Positions 5,187 through 63,635 of a stretch of DNA of 64,000 nt are shown here, in pieces (position 1 is the first letter of the stretch; each line of letters begins with the position of its first letter). The position numbers were made by a program, and so were the translations under genes. The notes below the pieces were generated by a model. The model did no database searches, had not been told where the DNA came from, and worked only from the letters and a program-made list of their open reading frames with translations. The stretch is from a virus (Duplodnaviria > Caudoviricetes): IMG/VR virus record IMGVR_UViG_3300036987_000310, positions 224,001 through 288,000 of that record; one strand, written 5' to 3'.

Positions 5187-6722
5187 TTACGGACGGTCAA
5201 TGCGAAGCGGCGCAACCCTACCGAACGCGGGCTTGAACCCCGTGTTGTTGCGCGTAAGCACCCACACCACGTCCATTCCTTTGGGACGCAGCTCGTAGGG
5301 CACCGTGCCGCAGTCGCCGTCCGTCAGGACGACAATCACGTCGAAATCCGTGCCCAGGTGCTTCGGGAAGTCCCGAAAAAACTCGTCGAATACGGTCCCT
5401 CCACGTCCGACCACCTTGGTGCGCTTGAGATCTTCCACCTTTTCCACACGGTGGACCCCCGCCCAGTGGGGAGACGCATCGCAGGGGATGACGTATCCTT
5501 CGGTGTTGTTCCCCAGGACCTGCAGCTGGGAGATTCCGTAAGCCATGTCGTCGTCGCCCATGGACCCTGAGGTGTCGAGCATTGCCAGCCAACGGGGCTT
5601 GTGCATGTAGCGCCGAGGCAGGTACATCTTGGGGTTGGTGCCCAAGAACCGCCGCCTGATGCGCTTCCAATCGTTGTTCAACCCCGCGTCCTGGACCTTC
5701 TTGAGCAGGGCGCTGCGAACGATGTCGGTGAACTTCAGGGTTGGCTTCTTCAACTCGCCGAGCATGCCTTCGATTTCCGACGGCAGACTGCCTCTCATCT
5801 GAGTCGCCTGGTCAGCCGCTCGCATGAGATCTGCCTGGACTTCTTGCTGGGTCATGTCGGTGTCGATGTGAGAATCCATGCCGCCCAGTCGGTCCATGGG
5901 CGACCCACATTTTCCGCATTCATGGCCATGCTCGTGAGGATGCTGTCCGCATCCGCTGCTGGGATTCTGTCCAGGCTGGTTCCCGTCTCCTCCATCCCCG
6001 TCTTCCTCTCCAGGCTGGTCTCCAGGCTGATCCCCAGGGGACTTGCCCTTTTGACCTTGCCCCTGATTGCCCTTTTGCTTCTGGCCGTCTGCGCCCATGG
6101 ACAGGTTTCCGCACTGGGGGCACTTGCGCGGGGACTTGTTCCAGTGGTCGATGATCTCGTCGTAGATGGACTCGGGCGACCGGCCGTGCAGCGACTTGTC
6201 CGCGAAGCAGAACTCCCCTTTCGGAAGCTCCTGCTTGCCGTCGATGAACGACAGGAGGGTGGCGAAGCTCAGGGGCTCCCCGATGTTGCCGCCAAACAGC
6301 TGGCCCTTGCGGTGCGTCTTTTCGTGGTCGGTCCACAGGCACGCGTTGACCACATAGTCCACCGAGATGTTCCACACCTGATGCATCTTCCCCTTGCCTC
6401 GCTTCGGGTGGAAGAAGATGATGTGGTAACCCTCGTGCTGCATGACAGTGGCCAGCTCGTCGGGCGTGAGCTTGTTGAGGAATTCTGGGTTCCAGTAGTA
6501 GGTGCGGCCGTCGGTGGCCGCCGTGTCGATGGGCTGTCCGTGCAGTTCAGTGCACAGCTCGTGCGGCTTGGGCGCCGAGTATGCGAACAAGAATGGGTTT
6601 CCACCGTTCTCCGGCTTGCGGAAAAGCCGGGTCATGCAGGAAGAGACCTTCTCCTGCATGGAGTTGAGCTGGGCGCCGTTGGGCGCCACCTTCCTGGGGT
6701 CCGAGAGTCGTGAACCGATCAT
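5187..6722 (-). CDS. DUF2201-type metallopeptidase-like + vWA domain protein
   Basis: TAATDG and HEGYH (HExxH) in N-terminal part; LDTSGSM and LTDG (MIDAS) in C-terminal part; G/Q/P-rich linker flanked by CPQC/CGKC. Confidence 0.9.
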   Translation of the reverse strand: MIGSRLSDPRKVAPNGAQLNSMQEKVSSCMTRLFRKPENGGNPFLFAYSAPKPHELCTELHGQPIDTAATDGRTYYWNPEFLNKLTPDELATVMQHEGYHIIFFHPKRGKGKMHQVWNISVDYVVNACLWTDHEKTHRKGQLFGGNIGEPLSFATLLSFIDGKQELPKGEFCFADKSLHGRSPESIYDEIIDHWNKSPRKCPQCGNLSMGADGQKQKGNQGQGQKGKSPGDQPGDQPGEEDGDGGDGNQPGQNPSSGCGQHPHEHGHECGKCGSPMDRLGGMDSHIDTDMTQQEVQADLMRAADQATQMRGSLPSEIEGMLGELKKPTLKFTDIVRSALLKKVQDAGLNNDWKRIRRRFLGTNPKMYLPRRYMHKPRWLAMLDTSGSMGDDDMAYGISQLQVLGNNTEGYVIPCDASPHWAGVHRVEKVEDLKRTKVVGRGGTVFDEFFRDFPKHLGTDFDVIVVLTDGDCGTVPYELRPKGMDVVWVLTRNNTGFKPAFGRVAPLRIDRP

Positions 6723-22858: not shown

Positions 22859-22934
22859 GGGATCGTGACGCAATGGTAGCGTACCAGCCTTTTAAGCTGT
22901 GTTGTTGTGGGTTCGAGTCCCACCGGTCCCACCA
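22859..22934 (+). tRNA. tRNA-Lys(UUU)
   Basis: Acceptor stem GGGATCG/CGGTCCC, anticodon loop CTTTTAA, T-loop GTTCGAGT, encoded ACCA end. Confidence 0.92.
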
Positions 22935-49328: not shown

Positions 49329-50291
49329 ATGCATTACATATTTTGTGTGTCCGGGTTTTCAGGAACCGGAAAAGACGAGTTCTGCCGACGTCTTGTTGAA
49401 GGCCACAGTGCAGTTCATACTGGTTTAGCTGATCCAGCTAAACGTCACATGGCTGACATATACGGGTTCACTCACGATCAGTTGTTTGGTCCGAGTCATA
49501 TGCGCAACGCCGGGGACCCGAGGTATCCGAAAACTGCCATCACCAAGGCTGGTGCGAGACTGGCTGACATGTCCGAGTTATTAGACGTTAGCGGGGATGA
49601 CCACACGGATCCTGAAAAGATTTGGTGGTGTGCCGATTTGGACTTGACAGACGAAACTGAGATCAGAAATCTTGTAATGGCCCCGAACGGTTCCGCTTGC
49701 GCTGGAAAGAAGCTTTTTCAAAGCAGGCGACTTGGCGGAACTCAGGTGCGAATCTTCTTTGAAGACACAAACCCGATGTTCTTCCTATCGCCACGCGAGG
49801 CGCTTCAAAAGTATTGCGACCTGATGAATCGGATGTATCTGTGCACCTGGGTTCAGGCCGGCGTCGAGCTGCACAGAAAGTTGGCCGTGCTCAGAGACAT
49901 CCTGACTCGGGACGACCAGGTGAGTCGACCTGTTCATGCATACGACAGGATGCTTGGGCTGATGCCGAACGAATTCAGAGTCGGGTCTGAAGCGAGCTTT
50001 CATCGGCAGGCGACCTACGACGTCGTGACGTGCTTCTCGGACTTCCGGCACCGCCATGAGATCCGTTATGTTCGCGAGGCGGAAAGAGAACGCGGCGGCT
50101 TCAGGGCCGTGCTCATCAGGGTGAAGCGTCCCGGAGTGGAAAAACCGCCATTCAACCACCGCTCCGAGACAGAGCAGGCAACCATCCCAGACTCCGAATT
50201 CGACTACGTAGTCGACAACAACAACACAATTTCTGGCCTCCACGCTGTGGTGGACACGATCGTGAGCCAGGTGAAAGGCGAGAGCAAGTGA
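49329..50291 (+). CDS. deoxynucleoside monophosphate kinase (T4 gp1-like) with insertions
   Basis: Walker A SGFSGTGKD, LADPAK, PREALQ, SDFRHRHE, HRSET. Confidence 0.8.
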   Translation: MHYIFCVSGFSGTGKDEFCRRLVEGHSAVHTGLADPAKRHMADIYGFTHDQLFGPSHMRNAGDPRYPKTAITKAGARLADMSELLDVSGDDHTDPEKIWWCADLDLTDETEIRNLVMAPNGSACAGKKLFQSRRLGGTQVRIFFEDTNPMFFLSPREALQKYCDLMNRMYLCTWVQAGVELHRKLAVLRDILTRDDQVSRPVHAYDRMLGLMPNEFRVGSEASFHRQATYDVVTCFSDFRHRHEIRYVREAERERGGFRAVLIRVKRPGVEKPPFNHRSETEQATIPDSEFDYVVDNNNTISGLHAVVDTIVSQVKGESK

Positions 50292-51241
50292 ACAAGGACA
50301 CATTGTTGCAAGTTTCCGAAATCGTGTCCCATGCCGGGTGTCCGGATGGAATTGGGGCGGCCATGATATGCAATGCCGCATACGCTTCATGCGGAATGCA
50401 CCCTCCCCCGACGAATTTCGTTCAGTACGGAACTCGCTTTCACGATAACCTCGTTTCACGCTCAAAGCAGCTTTTTGTCGACATCACACCCCCTAAGGGA
50501 CGATGGGAAGAATGGATGGGTTTGGACCCCGTCGTTCTCGATCATCACGAAACTATGATGCATGTGGTCAACTCGCTAAATGGAAAATATGGGGGCGCGG
50601 ATCACTCTGGAGCCATGTTGGCGTTTGAGAACGTCATGCTCCCTTTGGCAGGCGACTCGATGCAGAAACAAGACTTAGAGTCGTGGGAAAGACTAGCCCG
50701 TCTATGCATGGTTCGCGACACATGGAAAACAGCGTCCCCGGATTGGGACGATGCGTGCGCTCTGGCGCACGCGCTCCTCTTGTACGGCCAGAAATGGGGC
50801 GTTTCTGCTGCGATAGCTGGCAAAGTTCCTCTTGATGAGCTGCTTCCTGTCGGCGCCAAGGTTCACGATAAAATTCGACGTCAATCGAAAGGGGTTGTCA
50901 AGAATTCTCCTCGCAGAAACGTCAAGATTGGCGACGCTTCTGTCACCGTGGTTTTCTTCAATCATGCCAATGGTGGAACCATGAGCGACATCGCCCACTT
51001 CGTCATGGACTTGATGCCATGCAATGCAGTTGTCTCATACTTCTTTGTTTACGACAACGAGGAAGTACAAAACGTCGCGTCTGTTCGAACTGATGGGTGT
51101 TTTTCTGCCCGAGGACTTGCCGAGTCGTTTGGCGGTGGTGGACACAATAACTCTGCTGGATTCCGAATCCCCGGGGAGTACTCTCCGAATCAGATTATTG
51201 AAATGGTCATGGAAAGGATTGTCACGCTTCATAGCCGATAG
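50288..51241 (+). CDS. DHH/DHHA1 family phosphoesterase
   Basis: SHAGCPDG, VDI, LDHHET, SGAMLA, SVR, GGGGHNNSAGF. Confidence 0.85.
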   Translation: MNKDTLLQVSEIVSHAGCPDGIGAAMICNAAYASCGMHPPPTNFVQYGTRFHDNLVSRSKQLFVDITPPKGRWEEWMGLDPVVLDHHETMMHVVNSLNGKYGGADHSGAMLAFENVMLPLAGDSMQKQDLESWERLARLCMVRDTWKTASPDWDDACALAHALLLYGQKWGVSAAIAGKVPLDELLPVGAKVHDKIRRQSKGVVKNSPRRNVKIGDASVTVVFFNHANGGTMSDIAHFVMDLMPCNAVVSYFFVYDNEEVQNVASVRTDGCFSARGLAESFGGGGHNNSAGFRIPGEYSPNQIIEMVMERIVTLHSR

Positions 51242-51250
51242 GGCAGAACG

Positions 51251-52171
51251 CTATTTGATTACCCATCGTTCGATTATTATTTGTATCAAAGTGACGATCG
51301 TCGCGATGACAGAAACAGGAATGACAACCTTCCTGCTCAGTCCCTTTGAAGTTTCTTCAGCTTGTTTGCTGAACCCTTCAGAGGATGCTTTTGCTTGCAT
51401 TTCGATCGATTTGACCGCAAGGTCGGTCGTCATTTTGACATGTCTTTCAAAAGATTCCATGCGCTTGTCGTGAATGGAATCTGTTCCTATCAGCTTCAAA
51501 ATCTCTATGCCATATTTCGTTTCAAAGTCTTGAAAAGATTTCAGCAGACCTTCCATCGCGGCATGCGTCGTTTTTGCTGCTGATGCTGCTTCTTCGGAGG
51601 CTGTCAGTGCGTCACTCATTTTGGCCTCCAAATTGAGAATGCTGTTCCCAAGTTTTTTGTCTTCTTCGTTCAAGCGAGCAATCTGAATCGAAGTCCAGTC
51701 TTTGAGCTCAGAGACTTTTCCAAAAAGGCCTAGGTGCCCGTTTGCAGCCCGCATGAAAGCCCGCATGAACACAAACGACATTCCGAATGTGCCGGTTGTT
51801 TGGATGTGATCTGTGTGCACCCATGATAGCGGGTATTCCTTGGTCGTCTCGGAAACCGCCCACCATAAAACTTTCCCGTCTGACGACTTCATGGGCCATA
51901 CTGAAGTTGTTCCCTTGTTGTTACCATCTTTTGACGTGTCTGCTTCCGCTATGGCGTCTTGAATAATCCCGTGAAACATCTCCGGCACGAGGTCTAACAA
52001 CGTCATGTGCTGTATTTGATCAAGCGTATATCCAGAGTGGTCTAAAACATAGTTGTTTGCCCACGCAACTTTTCCTTCAGCTATGTTTATTTCAAACACT
52101 CCGCAGTCTTCTTGCGCGCGGCCTTCCTCACGCATTTTCAAAATCAATTTTTGTGGTAAGATGCCCTTCAT
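51251..52171 (-). CDS. PAS domain + coiled coil + C-terminal TM protein
   Basis: GVFEINIAEGKVAWANNYVLDHSGYTLDQI..LDLVP; C-terminal VVIPVSVIATIVTLIQIII. Confidence 0.65.
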   Translation of the reverse strand: MKGILPQKLILKMREEGRAQEDCGVFEINIAEGKVAWANNYVLDHSGYTLDQIQHMTLLDLVPEMFHGIIQDAIAEADTSKDGNNKGTTSVWPMKSSDGKVLWWAVSETTKEYPLSWVHTDHIQTTGTFGMSFVFMRAFMRAANGHLGLFGKVSELKDWTSIQIARLNEEDKKLGNSILNLEAKMSDALTASEEAASAAKTTHAAMEGLLKSFQDFETKYGIEILKLIGTDSIHDKRMESFERHVKMTTDLAVKSIEMQAKASSEGFSKQAEETSKGLSRKVVIPVSVIATIVTLIQIIIERWVIK

Positions 52172-52213: not shown

Positions 52214-52540
52214 ATGGAAATGGAATGTGAAAAATGCTTTGTGTCGAACACTTGTTCAAGACGTGGGTCTAGCCCGCTTGCGTTTGGGGGACAGACGTTC
52301 AAATGCAGAATAGTCGGAGGATTCGGCAGAAAGCCGATTGACAAATCCATTTTGTCAGTTGAGTCTGTAAAGAGTTATGAAAAAGACGGCCCGTGTCTAA
52401 CTGTTGCAGAGGTTCCGACAGTCGAAGACGGACTTGTGACCTTTGCAGTGACGAAGATTTTTTCTCCGCCGTGTCTTTCTCAAAGAGAGACAAATGTGGC
52501 TGTGACGTCGTCTGACGTCACAGCCAAATCCTATAAATGA
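52214..52540 (+). CDS. Cys-containing hypothetical protein
   Basis: CEKC..C..C. Confidence 0.55.
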   Translation: MEMECEKCFVSNTCSRRGSSPLAFGGQTFKCRIVGGFGRKPIDKSILSVESVKSYEKDGPCLTVAEVPTVEDGLVTFAVTKIFSPPCLSQRETNVAVTSSDVTAKSYK

Positions 52541-53866
52541 TTACGTGTGCGCGCCGTGCAGGAGGGGTTCTACAGCGCGACACCATTTCATGAGCTGTGG
52601 ATGTCTGGCAGCAGCTAGGCGATACATTCTATATGCGATACGTCTATACGACATATGTCCGTGAGGTCGCGTTCTCAATTCGACGACGTAGTATAGCTCT
52701 CTAAGAGACATTTGGAACACTGAACGATGCAAATATCCCAATGGAATAACATACTGGGATAGATCCGGGTCGTTCATAACCTCGTCAGCGTAAGACGTCA
52801 CCGACGACATTGCCGAAGTATACTCGTGTTCCAACTCCGACCCCGCAATATCATCAGGAATTGCGAAGCCATACTGCGTGGTGAGAGGTTCAACAAACTG
52901 TTCGCACCTTCGGTGTCTTTGTAGATCCCTGAAGGCTCCATAGTCCATGACTATGTCAAAAGATACCGGCACCGTGTCAAAAATCTTCGGGACTCCCGAG
53001 TGTTCTGGTCTGGCGTCCATGTGTTTGGAGAAAGACTCCCAGTCCATTTCGTGTCGGTGTTCGACAGCTTTTACGAAAGTGTCGAACACGCCTCGGGAAT
53101 CCGATGGCAACATCGAAACACACCAGTCGGGACTTTGCGGATCGAACTGTTCGTTCAGCGGCCCGAGCGATTTCACCGCTGGTTCGAATGTATTCGGGGA
53201 CGCGTGTCTCATCAACACTGGACACATGCCGGAAACTGCCGACAGAACGTCTGATCCGATTTGTTTCAACTCCGGGTTTGTGTGTCCCAAGAGAGTGGAA
53301 ACCAGGTCTCTAGCGTCCCTGAGATTTATGACACACGCCACATTCGTGCCAGTGCCAGCCGGCAAAAGATATCTCAGGTTGTCAAATGCTCGAGCTCGAA
53401 CAACTCTGTCAACCGCCTTCGGGTCGCTTGGATCTCTTCCCATTAAAATAGCGCAACGTTTCGCCATCGGCTCTTGCAACCGTTCATATGTCGCATATAA
53501 TCGCCCTGCAAATGCTTTCATGGTCTCTGGGGCGCCCGGAGGTGTAACGAAGCTTTCCCCAGAAAATTTTTGATACCTTGTGCTCTTTTCAGAAAAGGCG
53601 GCTCTTTGCACCGTTTCCACGACTTTTGACGCCACGATAGACAGCCCCTCTATGCACACTGGGACTGTCGCAAGTTCGGCGACGGAGCTGTGCCCATACC
53701 CAATCACCCACTTGTCGTTAAATTTGTCGGCTTCTTCGGCTGTGATGCTCGCCAAAATCTCTCTGGCTGACATTGGCGAACGCGAGTATTTGGCCAGTAC
53801 AGTAGCTTGTACAGATGGGTCCAGAAGTTCCCCATTTGGGCCTGTAAGACAAAAAACATCAGACAT
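52541..53866 (-). CDS. thyX: FAD-dependent thymidylate synthase, long two-domain type
   Basis: GYGHSSVAE, SEKSTRYQ, RYLLP, FRDLQRHRR, LRELYYVVELRT..GH.SYR. Confidence 0.9.
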   Translation of the reverse strand: MSDVFCLTGPNGELLDPSVQATVLAKYSRSPMSAREILASITAEEADKFNDKWVIGYGHSSVAELATVPVCIEGLSIVASKVVETVQRAAFSEKSTRYQKFSGESFVTPPGAPETMKAFAGRLYATYERLQEPMAKRCAILMGRDPSDPKAVDRVVRARAFDNLRYLLPAGTGTNVACVINLRDARDLVSTLLGHTNPELKQIGSDVLSAVSGMCPVLMRHASPNTFEPAVKSLGPLNEQFDPQSPDWCVSMLPSDSRGVFDTFVKAVEHRHEMDWESFSKHMDARPEHSGVPKIFDTVPVSFDIVMDYGAFRDLQRHRRCEQFVEPLTTQYGFAIPDDIAGSELEHEYTSAMSSVTSYADEVMNDPDLSQYVIPLGYLHRSVFQMSLRELYYVVELRTRPHGHMSYRRIAYRMYRLAAARHPQLMKWCRAVEPLLHGAHT

Positions 53867-53877
53867 GAGAGTCCTCC

Positions 53878-54444
53878 ATGTTCAACATACAACAAAGAAT
53901 GTCTGCTCTTGGTGTCTTCCATCTCAAAGCGTTGCATACGTTTTCCGGAGTTCCAGAAGACTTTAGACCGTGGGAATGCGGTTTGTCTCCATCTGCGTTA
54001 TATAATTGTTCTTTGACATGTAGAAAACAAATGGGAGTGAAGACTCCGGAAGTCAAATGGATGAGCATAAAACGGTGGGTTACGACGACTCCAGGAGGAA
54101 TACATCTTCCACCGGGGGTTTTCTTTTCCATCAAAAGAAAGGAAAAGTTTACGGCCTTGCCGAAGGCACATTTTGAGAAAAAAGAGTTTGTTCTGCTGAT
54201 GTTTCCGTACGGGAACGTGTGGAGTCAAAAAGAACTGGATGTTCCCATCGACGAAGAGTGGATGTTTTCCGAAAGTGATGGAATGACAATTTTGGAATTG
54301 TTAATGAGGAAAGATGCGGCTCATCCCGTCCGTGGCTATTTCAAGTCATGTTTCGAATATATGGAAAACAATCAAGATCAACTGTGGATACACATGAAGA
54401 GGCGTAGAAAAGAAGTTATCCCTGTTGAATCTTCAACCAACTGA
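53878..54444 (+). CDS. hypothetical protein (start uncertain)
   Basis: ORF. Confidence 0.5.
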   Translation: MFNIQQRMSALGVFHLKALHTFSGVPEDFRPWECGLSPSALYNCSLTCRKQMGVKTPEVKWMSIKRWVTTTPGGIHLPPGVFFSIKRKEKFTALPKAHFEKKEFVLLMFPYGNVWSQKELDVPIDEEWMFSESDGMTILELLMRKDAAHPVRGYFKSCFEYMENNQDQLWIHMKRRRKEVIPVESSTN

Positions 54445-54703
54445 GAACGGACAAAAGCCTTGCTTCCTGTTCAACCTTCAAGTCCACATCCTCTCTGCCG
54501 GATATGGCAGGAAGTGTCACAGTTACGTTTGTTTCAAATTCTTTGACCTCGACTGAAACAATTTTTATGGATTCCACTTTGTGTGGACCTACGTATGCTT
54601 GCATGGAACATGGCCATGGCCCGGGTCCGATCACTATTGTGAGCGTTTCGTCTGCAAACACTCTTGGGGGATTCATTTTTTCTTTGAAGCAAACAAAGTG
54701 CAC
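54416..54703 (-). CDS. hypothetical protein
   Basis: ORF; similar layout to 54673-54963; ends WLKIQQG*. Confidence 0.6.
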   Translation of the reverse strand: MHFVCFKEKMNPPRVFADETLTIVIGPGPWPCSMQAYVGPHKVESIKIVSVEVKEFETNVTVTLPAISGREDVDLKVEQEARLLSVLSWLKIQQG

Positions 54704-54963
54704 TTTAGCCCAGGAACCCGGCTCAAAAGTTTGAAATAACCCTCTGCTTCGGTTTTCACGCTGGGGTCCACAAGGTCTGGTTGAAGTCCGCGAAGCATGT
54801 CCATTGAGATGGCTGGCAAGAAATCGTCGGAGTCAAGATCGATTCTGAGCTTATTGACAAACCCTATCTGCTCAGAATCGACAAAAATCTTGGTGACTGG
54901 CGTAATGACGCCAGACTCAGACACGGTTATCGACAGTTTTATCTCAAATTCGACTGGTTGCAT
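54673..54963 (-). CDS. hypothetical protein
   Basis: ORF. Confidence 0.6.
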   Translation of the reverse strand: MQPVEFEIKLSITVSESGVITPVTKIFVDSEQIGFVNKLRIDLDSDDFLPAISMDMLRGLQPDLVDPSVKTEAEGYFKLLSRVPGLKCTLFASKKK

Positions 54964-55056: not shown

Positions 55057-56241
55057 TTACAGCAGACTTATCATGTCGTCATGATCTGCTCCGGTGCCAA
55101 TAAGAACCACCGGTATGTTCGCTGTCTCTTCGATTTTATCGATCATCGCCCTCGTTTCAACTGAGAGCTTGTTGAACGCTTCTCGCCCGCCACGCAGCCC
55201 GTTGTCGTGCCAGTTTAAATATTGCACAAAATTCAAAATCAGCTTCGTAGCCCCGTTTGTGGCGACCGCGTCTTCCAGTCCTGTCCACGAGAAGGTGCAC
55301 ACCCGTCTGACACGTTTCGTTACAGTAGTTTTTTCACGCTCTATGAGACTGCTAACTTCACTGTCTGGCATTCCGGCTTGTTTGGCTATCTGCCCCCAAG
55401 TCAATTCTTTACAGTCAGGATAGAAGTCCCCTGAATATCCAAGTTGCACACCATCTTCTTCAACATTCCCTACGCGAATGCCGAAGGTGCGGAGATTCAG
55501 ATAAACATCCCCAACATCCCTTGCCGGAATTGCCATATCATCCATGGCCTTTTGTGCCGTGCAATTCCTTGAAGTGCAGTGTGGGTAGCTCGAGCCATGA
55601 TCAATGGACAGGGCGTATCCCTGAGATCCTTCGTGCAGCCAGGTGTTTCCTTGTCGGATCATCTGTTGAACGCTTGACCTGAAGTGCGAGCCGTCGAGAA
55701 TGCGGACACAAGACGCAAACTCCTCTAGATCTACTTCCGTTCCTGTCCATTCCTCAACAGACCTCGACCCAGCAAGAAGAACTGATTCCTTCCTAAGGAT
55801 TTTATCCACCATTGCTGCGGAGCACCCCTGCATGGTGGACGCAATATGTTTTGTAGATCCAGGGCCGGTTTTTTCCATTTCGGCGTGGCTGGGAGTGACC
55901 ATGGAAGCTCTAGAGTGAATTGCGACGTTTGGCTTGCCAGTTTGGATCCACTCCGTAATGAGTCGGCTCCAATGTTCGCTGTCGGTTATGGTGATCCCAG
56001 AAGCTGGCGACAACCACCCCATGATGTCCAAAGCTTTAGCCTGTCTGAGCGCCAGAGCCGTAGGGAGGGTCTTTGCCACAAATTTATAGTTTTCGCTTTG
56101 AAAAGTGTGTCCAGCATTCGGAAAATTCGACGACGAGACGTTGTTCACACAGAATTTGTCAACAAGCCATGCCGAAACCTTTCCTTTTCCAGAACTACCC
56201 CACATTGCGTCCAACAGTATGTTAAATTTTCCTTGTTGCAT
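55057..56241 (-). CDS. purZ: adenylosuccinate synthetase homologue with PurZ signatures
   Basis: DAMWGSSGKGK (Ser where PurA has Asp), NFPNAGHT, EGSQGYALS, YPHCTSR, RTFGIRVGN, TTVTKRVRR, LNFVQY. Confidence 0.8.
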   Translation of the reverse strand: MQQGKFNILLDAMWGSSGKGKVSAWLVDKFCVNNVSSSNFPNAGHTFQSENYKFVAKTLPTALALRQAKALDIMGWLSPASGITITDSEHWSRLITEWIQTGKPNVAIHSRASMVTPSHAEMEKTGPGSTKHIASTMQGCSAAMVDKILRKESVLLAGSRSVEEWTGTEVDLEEFASCVRILDGSHFRSSVQQMIRQGNTWLHEGSQGYALSIDHGSSYPHCTSRNCTAQKAMDDMAIPARDVGDVYLNLRTFGIRVGNVEEDGVQLGYSGDFYPDCKELTWGQIAKQAGMPDSEVSSLIEREKTTVTKRVRRVCTFSWTGLEDAVATNGATKLILNFVQYLNWHDNGLRGGREAFNKLSVETRAMIDKIEETANIPVVLIGTGADHDDMISLL

Positions 56242-56242
56242 A

Positions 56243-56536
56243 TCACTCCTCTGGGGAAAACAAAATGCGCCCTTGATACTCTTTTACGTTTGTCAGACCG
56301 GTTGACTCAATGTCTTCTCCGTTCGGATTGAAGACAGCAAACACAAGCTCTCCATTCCCCAAGATGCCATTATGCTGTTCTGACACCTTTCCGATAAAAA
56401 TCTCGAGGGGCAAGTTGGTTCGGACCTTTAAGATCTCTGGACGATCGGCCACCCACCCGTTGGAGTTCAGATGGAGGGTTCCTGGGGGAGCTTCATATGA
56501 CTTATCAATCTGGATCACTGCAATTTTCATCTTCAA
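56243..56536 (-). CDS. hypothetical protein
   Basis: Directly upstream of and co-oriented with purZ. Confidence 0.6.
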   Translation of the reverse strand: MKMKIAVIQIDKSYEAPPGTLHLNSNGWVADRPEILKVRTNLPLEIFIGKVSEQHNGILGNGELVFAVFNPNGEDIESTGLTNVKEYQGRILFSPEE

Positions 56537-57449
56537 ACACTTCCGATTCTACCGAGGAGATGCGAATGAGGTTTTTCGTCCTCGCTATTTTTCCGAGGTC
56601 TTTCATTTCCAAATATCGAGCTATTCGAAAATTTGGATGTGATGGGTACCCAAAAGCAGCGAGTCTGGCTCCTTGAACTTCCTTAGGAGAGTACATGCGA
56701 CCAACTAGTTGGAGTTGTCTTCTCTTGTTAACGCGGTTCGCCCACCTCATTTCCAGTCTTCGCCTGATTGCCTTTTCTGTCACAAACATGACCCGGATTG
56801 TCATATCTGACGGTATTTTTCCGTTAACTCTCAGAGACACTCTACAAACGTAGTCGCAAGCCAGAGCGAACGCCTCCTGATATGAGTCTGCCCGTATCAG
56901 GACATGCGCCATTTTAAACCTAGGGGGCAGAATGACTCTCCATATTTTTGTTTCCTCGGTCACGCCAGCTTTCGGTCCAAGCAACTTCTCCAGAGTTTCT
57001 TTCCTGTAGCTCGGAAACGCTATACTCATTGCTGCATCATATAACTGTTCAAACCTTGTTTTTCCAACTTCAGACGATGGTGCTGGAATCGAATCAAGCA
57101 ACTCGATGGGAATGGTGTTGTTGACGAGCATGAGTTTCAAAAGAGAAGATAGGTACTGCTTTTCTTTCAATCCTCTGAACCGTTTAACGCATTTTTCTAC
57201 CGCGAGTGAAATCTTCTCCATGTCAATGCGGACAGTGCCGCCTTTTTGTCTCTTGGAATCGATCATGCTTCTCACCTGTAGAGTGTCATGCGATGTGTAG
57301 ACTGAGAGAACATACATGACAGTACGATGCATGCCTGTTCTCTGCGGTGCTTTGTTTTTTGAACCAAGAAAACATTGTGCCGATCTGGAAAGACAGAGGC
57401 ATGACCCGAAAGATCGGAGCAAAAAGGACTGTCCAGCACTTCGGTTCAC
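56505..57449 (-). CDS. basic hypothetical protein (true start probably further in)
   Basis: ORF. Confidence 0.65.
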   Translation of the reverse strand: MNRSAGQSFLLRSFGSCLCLSRSAQCFLGSKNKAPQRTGMHRTVMYVLSVYTSHDTLQVRSMIDSKRQKGGTVRIDMEKISLAVEKCVKRFRGLKEKQYLSSLLKLMLVNNTIPIELLDSIPAPSSEVGKTRFEQLYDAAMSIAFPSYRKETLEKLLGPKAGVTEETKIWRVILPPRFKMAHVLIRADSYQEAFALACDYVCRVSLRVNGKIPSDMTIRVMFVTEKAIRRRLEMRWANRVNKRRQLQLVGRMYSPKEVQGARLAAFGYPSHPNFRIARYLEMKDLGKIARTKNLIRISSVESEVFEDENCSDPD

Positions 57450-57608
57450 AGAAGTGCTGAACTACAACGAGTAGCCGGATCAAATCCGTAGCCCCTCGTT
57501 GGGATTTTTTCTTGCTTTTTTCTCCTTTCGATCTGCACTATTGTTAATCAATTCAATGGCAGTGAGAATGTTCCACGAGCAGAGACAGAGACGGATGAGG
57601 AAGAGTGA

Positions 57609-62777: not shown

Positions 62778-63001
62778 TGACCACATTTTGTCCCCGTTGT
62801 TTTAAACCGCTGGAACCTTTCGGGCAAATAAACAGAATGATTTGCCAAGAGTGTCGATGTATATTCGACGTTAAAATCACTGTTGAGCTTGTAGAGGTTT
62901 TTCATGCAGAGAACGCGGGGCGAATTGGAACGAGAAATCCTGCAGGCGGTCTCCTGCCCTCCGGCGAGAATAGTGGTGGAGGGACCGAGAAAGACCGGTA
63001 A
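62777..63001 (+). CDS. Zn-ribbon protein
   Basis: TGATG coupling; CPRC..CQEC. Confidence 0.55.
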   Translation: MTTFCPRCFKPLEPFGQINRMICQECRCIFDVKITVELVEVFHAENAGRIGTRNPAGGLLPSGENSGGGTEKDR

Positions 63002-63635
63002 ACGCAGGCTTGTTCATGATGTGCTAGAACTGAATGTTTCGCAACAGGATTTGTTGGAAGTCGATGGCTCCATAGAGGGAGCCAGGCAGGCTCAACAATT
63101 CATAAAGACATTTCCCACCTTTGGCGAGTCTCGAGTTGTTTTGGTGGACGGGCACAATTTTTCCGATTCAGCGCAAGACGCATACTTGAAAATATGCGAG
63201 GATGGGACTGATTTTTCAACCATAATGATGATTGTTGACGATGGAGTAGTTCTGCGTCCGGCGCTCTTGTCTAGGGTTGTCGTGATGAGACTGTTTGAAA
63301 AAATCTCCGGAGACGATTTTTTGTCTTCTGTCATGCGCGAAAAACGTGAGCTTTCAGGTGTGTTGTCTGTCAACGCTCAAGAGATGGAGAGCCTCCATGC
63401 TGCTGTATGTAGCGCTATGGAAGGAAATGTCGATCTCCTCCACATTCCTCGTTTCATGTCGGAATGGTCGAAACTGGATGACGATATGAAAGAGGCTGTT
63501 TTGGCCGTATTTGACCACGCCATAGGCAACTGTTTTGGCACCAGGGCCGCCAACATATCTAAACTCGTCGACACTTTGAGATCTGTGCCATCTGCGAATG
63601 CCGAAATACACTGGTGGCGATCATGCTTAGCATGA
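62904..63635 (+). CDS. DNA polymerase III delta-prime-like clamp-loader subunit (degenerate AAA+)
   Basis: VEGPRKTGK, VVLVDGHNFSDSAQDAYLKICED, LRPALLSRV. Confidence 0.75.
   Translation: MQRTRGELEREILQAVSCPPARIVVEGPRKTGKRRLVHDVLELNVSQQDLLEVDGSIEGARQAQQFIKTFPTFGESRVVLVDGHNFSDSAQDAYLKICEDGTDFSTIMMIVDDGVVLRPALLSRVVVMRLFEKISGDDFLSSVMREKRELSGVLSVNAQEMESLHAAVCSAMEGNVDLLHIPRFMSEWSKLDDDMKEAVLAVFDHAIGNCFGTRAANISKLVDTLRSVPSANAEIHWWRSCLA

Follow-up and report, generated by a model that had tools for sequence, protein, structure and literature searches.

Does a gene for a PurZ-like enzyme in the genome of a very large phage mean that this phage replaces adenine with 2-aminoadenine (Z) in its DNA? The question is raised by a stretch of 64,000 nucleotides (hereafter the window) of the IMG/VR virus record IMGVR_UViG_3300036987_000310, which corresponds to C1:224001-288000 of one contig of 376,674 bp whose ends overlap by 127 bp, and in particular by one gene on its minus strand, whose product is designated P0001. 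Positions given below without a contig or locus name are those of the window. The answer favoured here, with a probability of roughly 0.6, is that the phage has a Z-genome, made with a PurZ-type enzyme and with HD and MazG-like helper enzymes. What is established is the gene itself with its active-site residues, fold and clade, its strict conservation and its gene order in relatives, and the fact that the genome has accessory genes.

55057–56241, minus strand: purZ-type gene (P0001), an intact frame of 394 amino acids (aa) with an ATG start; candidate N6-succino-2-amino-2'-deoxyadenylate synthase

A GGAG ribosome-binding site (RBS) lies 7 nt upstream of the P0001 start, and the protein contains the motifs WGSSGKGK (residues 14–21), NFPNAGHT (39–46), CTSR (222–225), TTVTKRVRR (305–313) and LNFVQY (336–341), so that every motif string listed in a preliminary description of this DNA is found in the minus-strand translation of 55057–56241. 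P0001 matches the adenylosuccinate-synthetase family PF00709 (E = 4.8e-28) and, over residues 5–346, PHROG 1211 ('2-aminooxy adenylosuccinate synthetase', PurZ; E = 5e-45). Its top sequence matches in the PDB are PurZ (DgsS) of Vibrio phage phiVC8 (2.4e-30) and then of cyanophage S-2L (2.2e-27), followed at lower rank by PurA of Pyrococcus horikoshii (7e-20), the PurZ0 entry 7VF6 (1.6e-12), which is from Gordonia phage Archimedes (PMC12884076), and E. coli PurA (5e-9). Judged by the Pfam, PHROG and PDB E-values, the family match is far above chance. An AlphaFold2 model built with 97 homologues as input has a predicted local distance difference test score (pLDDT) of 97.3, and in a Foldseek search with this model ranks 1–5 are taken by 7ODX, 6TNH, 6FKO and 6FM1 (PurZ of S-2L and phiVC8), with archaeal PurA and PurZ0 close behind.

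PurA enzymes possess a catalytic aspartate and a GTP pocket, both of which E. coli PurA shows in an alignment of P0001 and members of its clade with three PurZ, two PurZ0, and PurA from E. coli and from a 735-kb phage. The catalytic Asp13 is replaced by Ser16 in P0001 (G15-S16-S17-G18-K19-G20 versus G12-D13-E14-G15-K16-G17 in E. coli), a substitution which had been read from the sequence beforehand and which alignment with the E. coli enzyme bears out; serine occupies this position in all 244 homologues with a readable P-loop (269 retrieved). The nucleotide pocket L-N-F338-V-Q-Y341 aligns with L-N-F-C-N-Y of phiVC8, where E. coli PurA has TKLD and PurZ0 has SMAD, and conservation of F338 and Y341 among 97 homologues is 90% or higher; in phiVC8, F295 and Y298 have been described as stabilising the adenine of ATP by stacking (bioRxiv 10.1101/2025.10.22.683976). 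P0001 retains PNAGHT, SQG and the PurZ-typical C-T-S-R. Among the ten discriminating residues of the same preprint, it keeps S14, T262, F295, Y298, W252 and Y244 (phiVC8 numbering; bioRxiv 10.1101/2025.10.22.683976), the equivalents being Thr305 for T262, Trp282 for W252 and a tyrosine for Y244, while S273 is a threonine in P0001.

The aspartate loop reads E-K-T-T-V-T-K-R-V-R-R-V in P0001 and E-L-T-T-V-T-K-K-V-R-R-V in phiVC8, the sole nearby difference being the residue before TT (Lys304 in P0001, Leu261 in phiVC8). The PurZ of Acinetobacter phage SH-Ab 15497, counted among the characterised PurZ enzymes (bioRxiv 10.1101/2025.10.22.683976), likewise has a lysine at this place. The preliminary description had set an arginine here against a leucine in phiVC8 and had left the substrate preference open on that ground; this caveat falls, because phiVC8 itself reads TTVTKKVRRV and thus has the same loop. 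Compared with PurA, P0001 has Ser16 and NFVQY in place of Asp13 and TKLD, and on the model TIGR00184 it scores 111 bits where PurA membership requires 396. It has no aspartate at the position equivalent to D333. The NFxxY pocket, the lack of TKLD and a position in the trees outside PurA and PurZ0 all agree with the earlier proposal that P0001 is probably an ATP-type PurZ rather than a PurA or a PurZ0.

The trees were rooted on two Asp-type PurA only (E. coli and the 735-kb phage), with archaeal PurA left out. In the tree of 153 rows, PurZ0 branches first (support 100), and among the remaining rows (99) all known PurZ form one clade while P0001 belongs to another. In the tree of 73 rows, P0001 belongs to a clade of 31 rows (ultrafast bootstrap 91, Shimodaira–Hasegawa-like approximate likelihood ratio test 91), phiVC8, S-2L, PMBT28 and SH-Ab form their own clade of 7 rows (98/90), and PurZ0 forms another (100/100). 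A phylogeny with PurA, PurZ and PurZ0, which had been suggested as a check, accordingly puts P0001 outside both PurA and PurZ0. The PurZ-like protein of the cultured Flavobacterium phage MaF61 (168 kb) has a long and unstable branch, falling in the wider clade of P0001 in the 153-row tree and not in the 73-row tree; MaF61 was considered as kin of the 377-kb phage and rejected, as the two have no structural proteins in common. The uncultured 735-kb phage LR756501.1 (L030:1492-2691) encodes a canonical Asp-type PurA with GDEGKGK and TKAD, which means that the Asp-type form does occur in huge phages and that PurA-type and PurZ-type enzymes are found in different lineages.

The genome record in IMG/VR has direct terminal repeats and is rated 100% complete by CheckV. 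Its identity as a phage is based on how IMG/VR and CheckV classify it, on its terminal repeats, and on genes for replication and lysis; no match was obtained in a Terminase_6N search, and seven of ten long open reading frames (ORFs) checked have no PHROG. No DNA-level match was found when 20 kb of the genome was compared by megablast with 50,697 deposited phage records; in assembled contigs, which carry no signal of base modification, near-identical sequence turns up in several studies of groundwater, coal, soil and wetland samples. The gene set includes a family-A polymerase of 942 aa that contains a 3'-5' exonuclease domain, several helicases, one of them DnaB-like, and RecA/UvsX-like, SbcC-like, DnaJ, clamp-loader-like and peptidoglycan-binding endolysin-like proteins. 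The DnaJ is full-length (J, zinc-finger and C-terminal domains) and its gene adjoins that of the polymerase (L003:2103-3011, minus strand, equal to G000:C1:82103-83011). The Pol III-type clamp-loader subunits named in the preliminary description are only partly borne out: one clamp-loader-like gene is there, but no Pol III alpha was found in the genome and the polymerase is of family A, so that to speak of a Pol III-type replisome would overstate the case.

P0001 has more than 1000 homologues, metagenomic members of its clade, at E < 1e-10 in a set of 5.8 billion proteins; the best 120 of them share 56–78% identity with it, and 11 of these 120 are on contigs of 200–445 kb. Four other complete relatives were found (362, 393, 427 and 436 kb), and each has purZ as well as an orthologue of the HD gene described below; in the three complete relatives tested for the pair (3/3), a MazG-like gene lies beside the HD gene. 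No relative without purZ was found, the contigs recovered with the polymerase marker being only fragments and all 13 loci recovered with the ThyX marker carrying purZ; its presence in every relative found fits a core function. Four of the homologues (P0121, P0122, P0123 and P0128; 747–1197 aa) contain inteins with LAGLIDADG homing endonucleases, inserted at two sites (near query residues 45–50 and about 210), and P0123 holds two inteins. As a rule, inteins are found in indispensable genes of replication or nucleotide metabolism.

Outside the window, about 186 kb from purZ, the genome carries a pair of genes on the minus strand (G000:C1:92644-94097) with possible roles in clearing nucleotides:

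C1:93360–94097, minus strand: YfbR/DatZ-like HD phosphohydrolase (P0270), 245 aa; Pfam YfbR-like 2.5e-19, PHROG 7076 ('dATP triphosphohydrolase') 3.2e-19
adjoining P0270, minus strand: MazG-like protein (P0271), 238 aa, with C-terminal E-x-x-E ... E-x-x-D; PF12643 19 bits against a cut-off of 27, phrog_229 2.7e-8

P0270 is the only YfbR/DatZ-like gene in the genome, and tblastn searches with DatZ of phiVC8 and of S-2L gave the same weak match, at C1:93.7-94.0 kb. One ordinary-looking dUTPase is encoded at C1:291542-291940, just beyond the window. A search of the genome for adenylosuccinate lyase (PurB) found none encoded, as expected if the host PurB is used; the known Z-phages are said, in papers of 2021, usually to rely on host PurB.

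Smaller phages of the P0001 clade show another arrangement. On three contigs of the 31-row clade (12, 60 and 64 kb), a dUTPase/DCD-family gene directly follows the PurZ-like gene:

L032:7416-10613: PurZ-like and Dut-like pair
L068:8001-9788: PurZ-like and Dut-like pair
L069:8001-9789: PurZ-like and Dut-like pair

On one contig with such a pair, an NT5C-like nucleotidase is encoded upstream, and a double Dut/DCD protein of 506 aa is present as well. For the Dut-like gene of P0126, the top-ranked of 2015 dUTPase-matching phage records are mostly Microbacterium Goodmanvirus, the first-ranked matches being the Arthrobacter phages Litotes and AppleCider, and the matched Microbacterium phages carry PurZ0-type genes. 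These matches fit the DutZ class, a dATP/dGTP hydrolase and the Dut-like class of PurZ0 phages (PMC12884076), and the PurZ-like and Dut-like pair is a candidate for an alternative Z-module of ATP-type enzymes. As to the composition of the 377-kb genome, 6-mer palindromes made of G and C only show a stronger depletion than palindromes that include A/T (mean z −1.52 versus −0.36; one-sided Mann-Whitney p = 0.023), a weak effect seen with no positive controls, in the direction expected if A-containing sites were protected. GGCC is the most avoided tetramer in the genome.

In the pathway proposed here, P0001 would couple aspartate to dGMP at the expense of ATP, yielding N6-succino-2-amino-2'-deoxyadenylate, which the host adenylosuccinate lyase would convert to dZMP. 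Kinases would then form dZTP, a phage deoxynucleoside monophosphate (dNMP) kinase encoded 5 kb from purZ being a candidate that may act on dZMP, and the phage family-A polymerase would place Z opposite T. The MazG-like P0271 would hydrolyse dGTP and dATP to dGMP and dAMP, after which the HD enzyme P0270 may clear dAMP or dATP, a two-step clearance of adenine which would parallel the DutZ/DmtZ logic of PurZ0 phages (PMC12884076). The outcome would be the large or complete replacement of adenine by 2-aminoadenine in the 377-kb genome and in its huge-phage lineage. The scheme predicts the substrates of the three enzymes, a part for host PurB, and Z in the virion DNA.

Several findings weigh against a Z-genome, and a first group of them concerns the identity of P0001. 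Its best NCBIfam model is the PurZ model NF038379, but the score of 179.4 bits is below the curated cut-off of 300 bits (known PurZ score 397 bits for phiVC8 and 350 bits for S-2L), and the archaeal-type PurA model NF003295 comes second at 156 bits, 23 bits behind. P0001 also lies outside the clade of every biochemically characterised PurZ, and the backbone of the 73-row tree is poorly supported (13/87). Three of the preprint's residues differ in P0001, namely F12 (Trp14, as in PurA), P233 (Gly254) and P144 (Glu152). P0001 is PurZ-like by the residues tested, yet it stands in an uncharacterised branch beyond the limits of the NCBI family; a PurZ-type mechanism is supported by its sequence, while its score falls short of strict family membership. 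The near tie of the two models, the separate clade and Trp14 (Phe12 in phiVC8) could also belong to a Ser-type PurA relative with another job in a phage with ordinary DNA, such as the supply of ribo-2-aminoadenylate or adenylosuccinate to purine pools, a drain on dGMP and dGTP, or anti-defence, and the finding that the genome of the clade relative MaF61 has no clear DatZ or Dut gene points the same way. Such a role is nevertheless judged unlikely, since the ATP pocket and the aspartate loop agree with those of assayed PurZ, the PurA-like gene of the 735-kb phage shows that huge phages can carry the Asp form, the Dut-like partners in the clade match those of PurZ0 phages, and the strict retention of purZ as a core gene fits a genome-wide role better than accessory metabolism.

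The second group concerns the helpers and the polymerase. The best PDB match of P0270 is E. coli YfbR, a 5'-deoxynucleotidase (1e-6), with DatZ absent even at E ≤ 1; being closer to YfbR than to DatZ, P0270 may be a dNMP nucleotidase and not a dATP triphosphohydrolase. It has Tyr46 and Ser48 where S-2L DatZ has W20 and I22. In DatZ-like proteins, contigs enriched in dZ (the deoxy form of Z) show Y20 together with T/S22 (bioRxiv 10.1101/2025.10.22.683976); Y20/S22 was rejected as a Z-specific DatZ signature, the same Tyr-Ser/Thr pattern occurring in a 99%-complete phage without PurZ. The preliminary description had proposed searching the full genome for datZ, mazZ and the replicative polymerase, and such a search recovers the DatZ-like HD gene, the MazG-like gene and a family-A polymerase; neither the DUF550 domain nor S-2L MazZ has a match in the genome, P0271 has no detectable similarity to the PMBT28 pyrophosphohydrolase whose gene lies beside PMBT28 purZ, and the 942-aa PolA (P0272) is not a DpoZ (DpoZ_1 71 bits versus 500, DpoZ_2 24 bits versus 350). 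The co-occurrence of the purZ, HD and MazG-like genes is not independent evidence, because it is known from one lineage with no purZ-less relative and may reflect shared descent. With no true DatZ and no Z-selective DpoZ, dATP might be incompletely excluded, in which case dZ nucleotides would be made but the genome would be partly substituted or Z conditional; the Z-related genes, lying so far apart, likewise form no single Z-cluster. Partial substitution is nonetheless rated as quite unlikely. S-2L reportedly achieves full substitution by a non-selective PrimPol and the removal of dATP, so that a DpoZ is not required. A MazG-like enzyme with a 5'-deoxynucleotidase could moreover clear dATP in two steps, as DutZ/DmtZ do (PMC12884076). 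An inactive relic, a mis-assembly or a host-derived fragment is highly improbable, as the frame is intact with its RBS, the invariant catalytic residues are retained, orthologues at 57–78% identity come from many independent assemblies and studies, and the contig with its 127-bp terminal repeats is rated complete.

The surroundings of purZ include genes that accompany it in related phages. The features are as follows.

56505–57266, minus strand: conserved 253-aa gene directly upstream of purZ; orthologues in relatives, no family match
56243–56536, minus strand: doubtful 97-aa ORF between the 253-aa gene and purZ; homologue only in the closest relative (L009), no family match
54416–54963, minus strand: two small ORFs, of 96 and 95 aa, separating purZ from the ThyX-like gene; kept only in L009 and L010, no family matches
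52541–53866, minus strand: ThyX-like flavin-dependent thymidylate synthase of double length, 441 aa; Pfam Thy1 E = 3.8e-36 in two stretches, phrog_36506
52497–52526, minus strand: terminator-like hairpin with a 13-bp stem just past the ThyX-like stop; pattern match only
51251–52171, minus strand: conserved 306-aa gene; homologues at 33–58% identity in 5 of 6 PurZ loci, sub-threshold PAS match only
50288–51241, plus strand: DHH/DHHA1 phosphoesterase, 317 aa; Pfam DHHA1 1.3e-6, phrog_4771 3.8e-25
49329–50291, plus strand: deoxynucleoside monophosphate kinase, 320 aa; phrog_139 3.3e-24, weak Pfam DNMK; candidate dZMP/dNMP kinase
62904–63635, plus strand: clamp-loader-like gene, 243 aa; phrog_5846 8e-13, DNA_pol3_delta2 weak (20.8 bits against a cut-off of 27)

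The ThyX-like gene and purZ are on the same strand and apparently form one operon; as judged from these features, the purZ transcription unit appears to run on the minus strand from 57266 to the hairpin at 52526–52497, which is likely its end, and the clamp-loader-like gene is divergent from it. The 253-aa gene probably starts at the ATG at 57266, preceded by an AGGTGA RBS, and not at the GTG at 57449: a hairpin with a 12-bp stem and a T-run (57431–57462, minus strand) lies inside the GTG-started frame 56505–57449 and upstream of the ATG, which supports the shorter model. Its mean column identity among relatives is 66%, it has no match in Pfam, PHROG or Atlas, and its AlphaFold2 model is unusable (pLDDT 60.7). 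The ThyX-like protein shows 50–70% identity across relatives and a mean column identity of 73%. The order 253-aa gene, purZ, ThyX-like gene is kept in all six PurZ loci and in the 13 ThyX-marker loci (with the 253-aa orthologue so placed in 12/13), purZ lying 1–3 kb from the ThyX-like gene in 13/13 of the latter. The dNMP kinase and the DHH phosphoesterase are usually within 10 kb of purZ in relatives, and P0127, a distant member of the clade, likewise has a DHHA1 gene not far from its PurZ-like gene. For the broader proposition, the chances are put at about even: that an entire huge-phage lineage of 240–445 kb, widely distributed in groundwater, coal, soil and wetland, has genomes written in Z-T-G-C, with a third PurZ branch in an operon with the 253-aa protein and a double ThyX, a MazG/YfbR-like two-step clearance, and a PolA other than DpoZ.

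The remainder of the window differs in character. Positions 1–43000 (G000:C1:224001-267000) have a G+C content of 0.53–0.60, against 0.45–0.51 in the rest of the window, and are packed with small genes, few ORFs exceeding 300 aa and the longest having 511 aa. An alternative code with TGA as a sense codon was considered for this ORF-poor part and rejected, as frames then open indiscriminately on both strands. The window contains a single tRNA gene. The two features singled out in this part are:

5187–6722, minus strand: 511-aa protein with DUF2201 metallopeptidase-like and VWA-like domains, phrog_1314
22859–22934, plus strand: tRNA-Lys (anticodon TTT)

Z-DNA has been described in Siphoviridae and Podoviridae, and the known PurZ phages retrieved here have genomes of about 38–82 kb. 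A full-text literature search found no account of PurZ, or of 2-aminoadenine, in phages called jumbo, huge or mega. A 2026 survey in Nucleic Acids Research counted 147 PurZ of phages among NCBI viruses, distributed over seven phage groups (PMC12884076), and its text does not contain the words jumbo, Myoviridae or genome size; the paper describing MaF61 makes no mention of a PurZ-like gene or of base modification. A PurZ branch in huge phages is a context new relative to the literature searched, and the unusual setting pointed out in the preliminary description holds for a complete 377-kb phage.

If the Z-genome is real, it and its relatives would be the largest Z-genomes known, by roughly an order of magnitude, and complete replacement of adenine would scale to 0.4-Mb genomes with complex replisomes. 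The PurZ family would gain a large third branch overlooked by present annotation models, as its members fall below the NCBIfam cut-off and bear the Joint Genome Institute label 'adenylosuccinate synthase', and a sizeable share of subsurface and soil huge phages would have DNA resisting many restriction enzymes. Z-DNA is poorly base-called on nanopore. The consequences would extend to host defence, virome methods and abundance estimates, and for synthetic biology the lineage may offer a PolA that accepts dZTP and an alternative pair of dATP-clearing enzymes.

Among the known systems, the short archaeal PurA (Pyrococcus horikoshii, 5K7X/2D7U; NF003295) resembles P0001 in size class and in fold (Foldseek E 2e-27), but P0001 is without the catalytic aspartate and the GTP pocket. 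PurZ0 is, like P0001, a Ser-type member of the PurZ group; it differs in its S-M-A-D GTP-type pocket and GSEAKG P-loop, where P0001 has NFVQY and GSSGKG, shares 22–23% identity with P0001 and forms a distinct clade (100/100). P0270 has in common with DatZ (S-2L, 6ZPA) and E. coli YfbR the HD family PF12917 with its metal ligands H...HD...D retained, and with S-2L DatZ the match to PHROG 7076 (6e-22 for the latter), whereas it is longer (245 aa against 170–175 aa in the DatZ/YfbR comparison) and has Tyr46/Ser48 at the specificity residues W20/I22 of S-2L DatZ. The closest system is the PurZ of phiVC8 and S-2L (6FM1/6FKO/6TNH, 7ODX), from which P0001 differs in its 28–31% identity, in being 35–50 residues longer (inserts at about 79–86 and 290–301 and a longer C-terminal part), and in its setting, a phage genome about 9 times larger with purZ not adjoining datZ, mazZ or dpoZ. 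With these enzymes P0001 shares a common fold (Foldseek E about 1e-28, template modelling score 0.84 on the target), serine in place of Asp13, PNAGHT, TSR, TTVTK(K/R)VRR, N-F-x-x-Y and the equivalents of W252, Y244 and T262.

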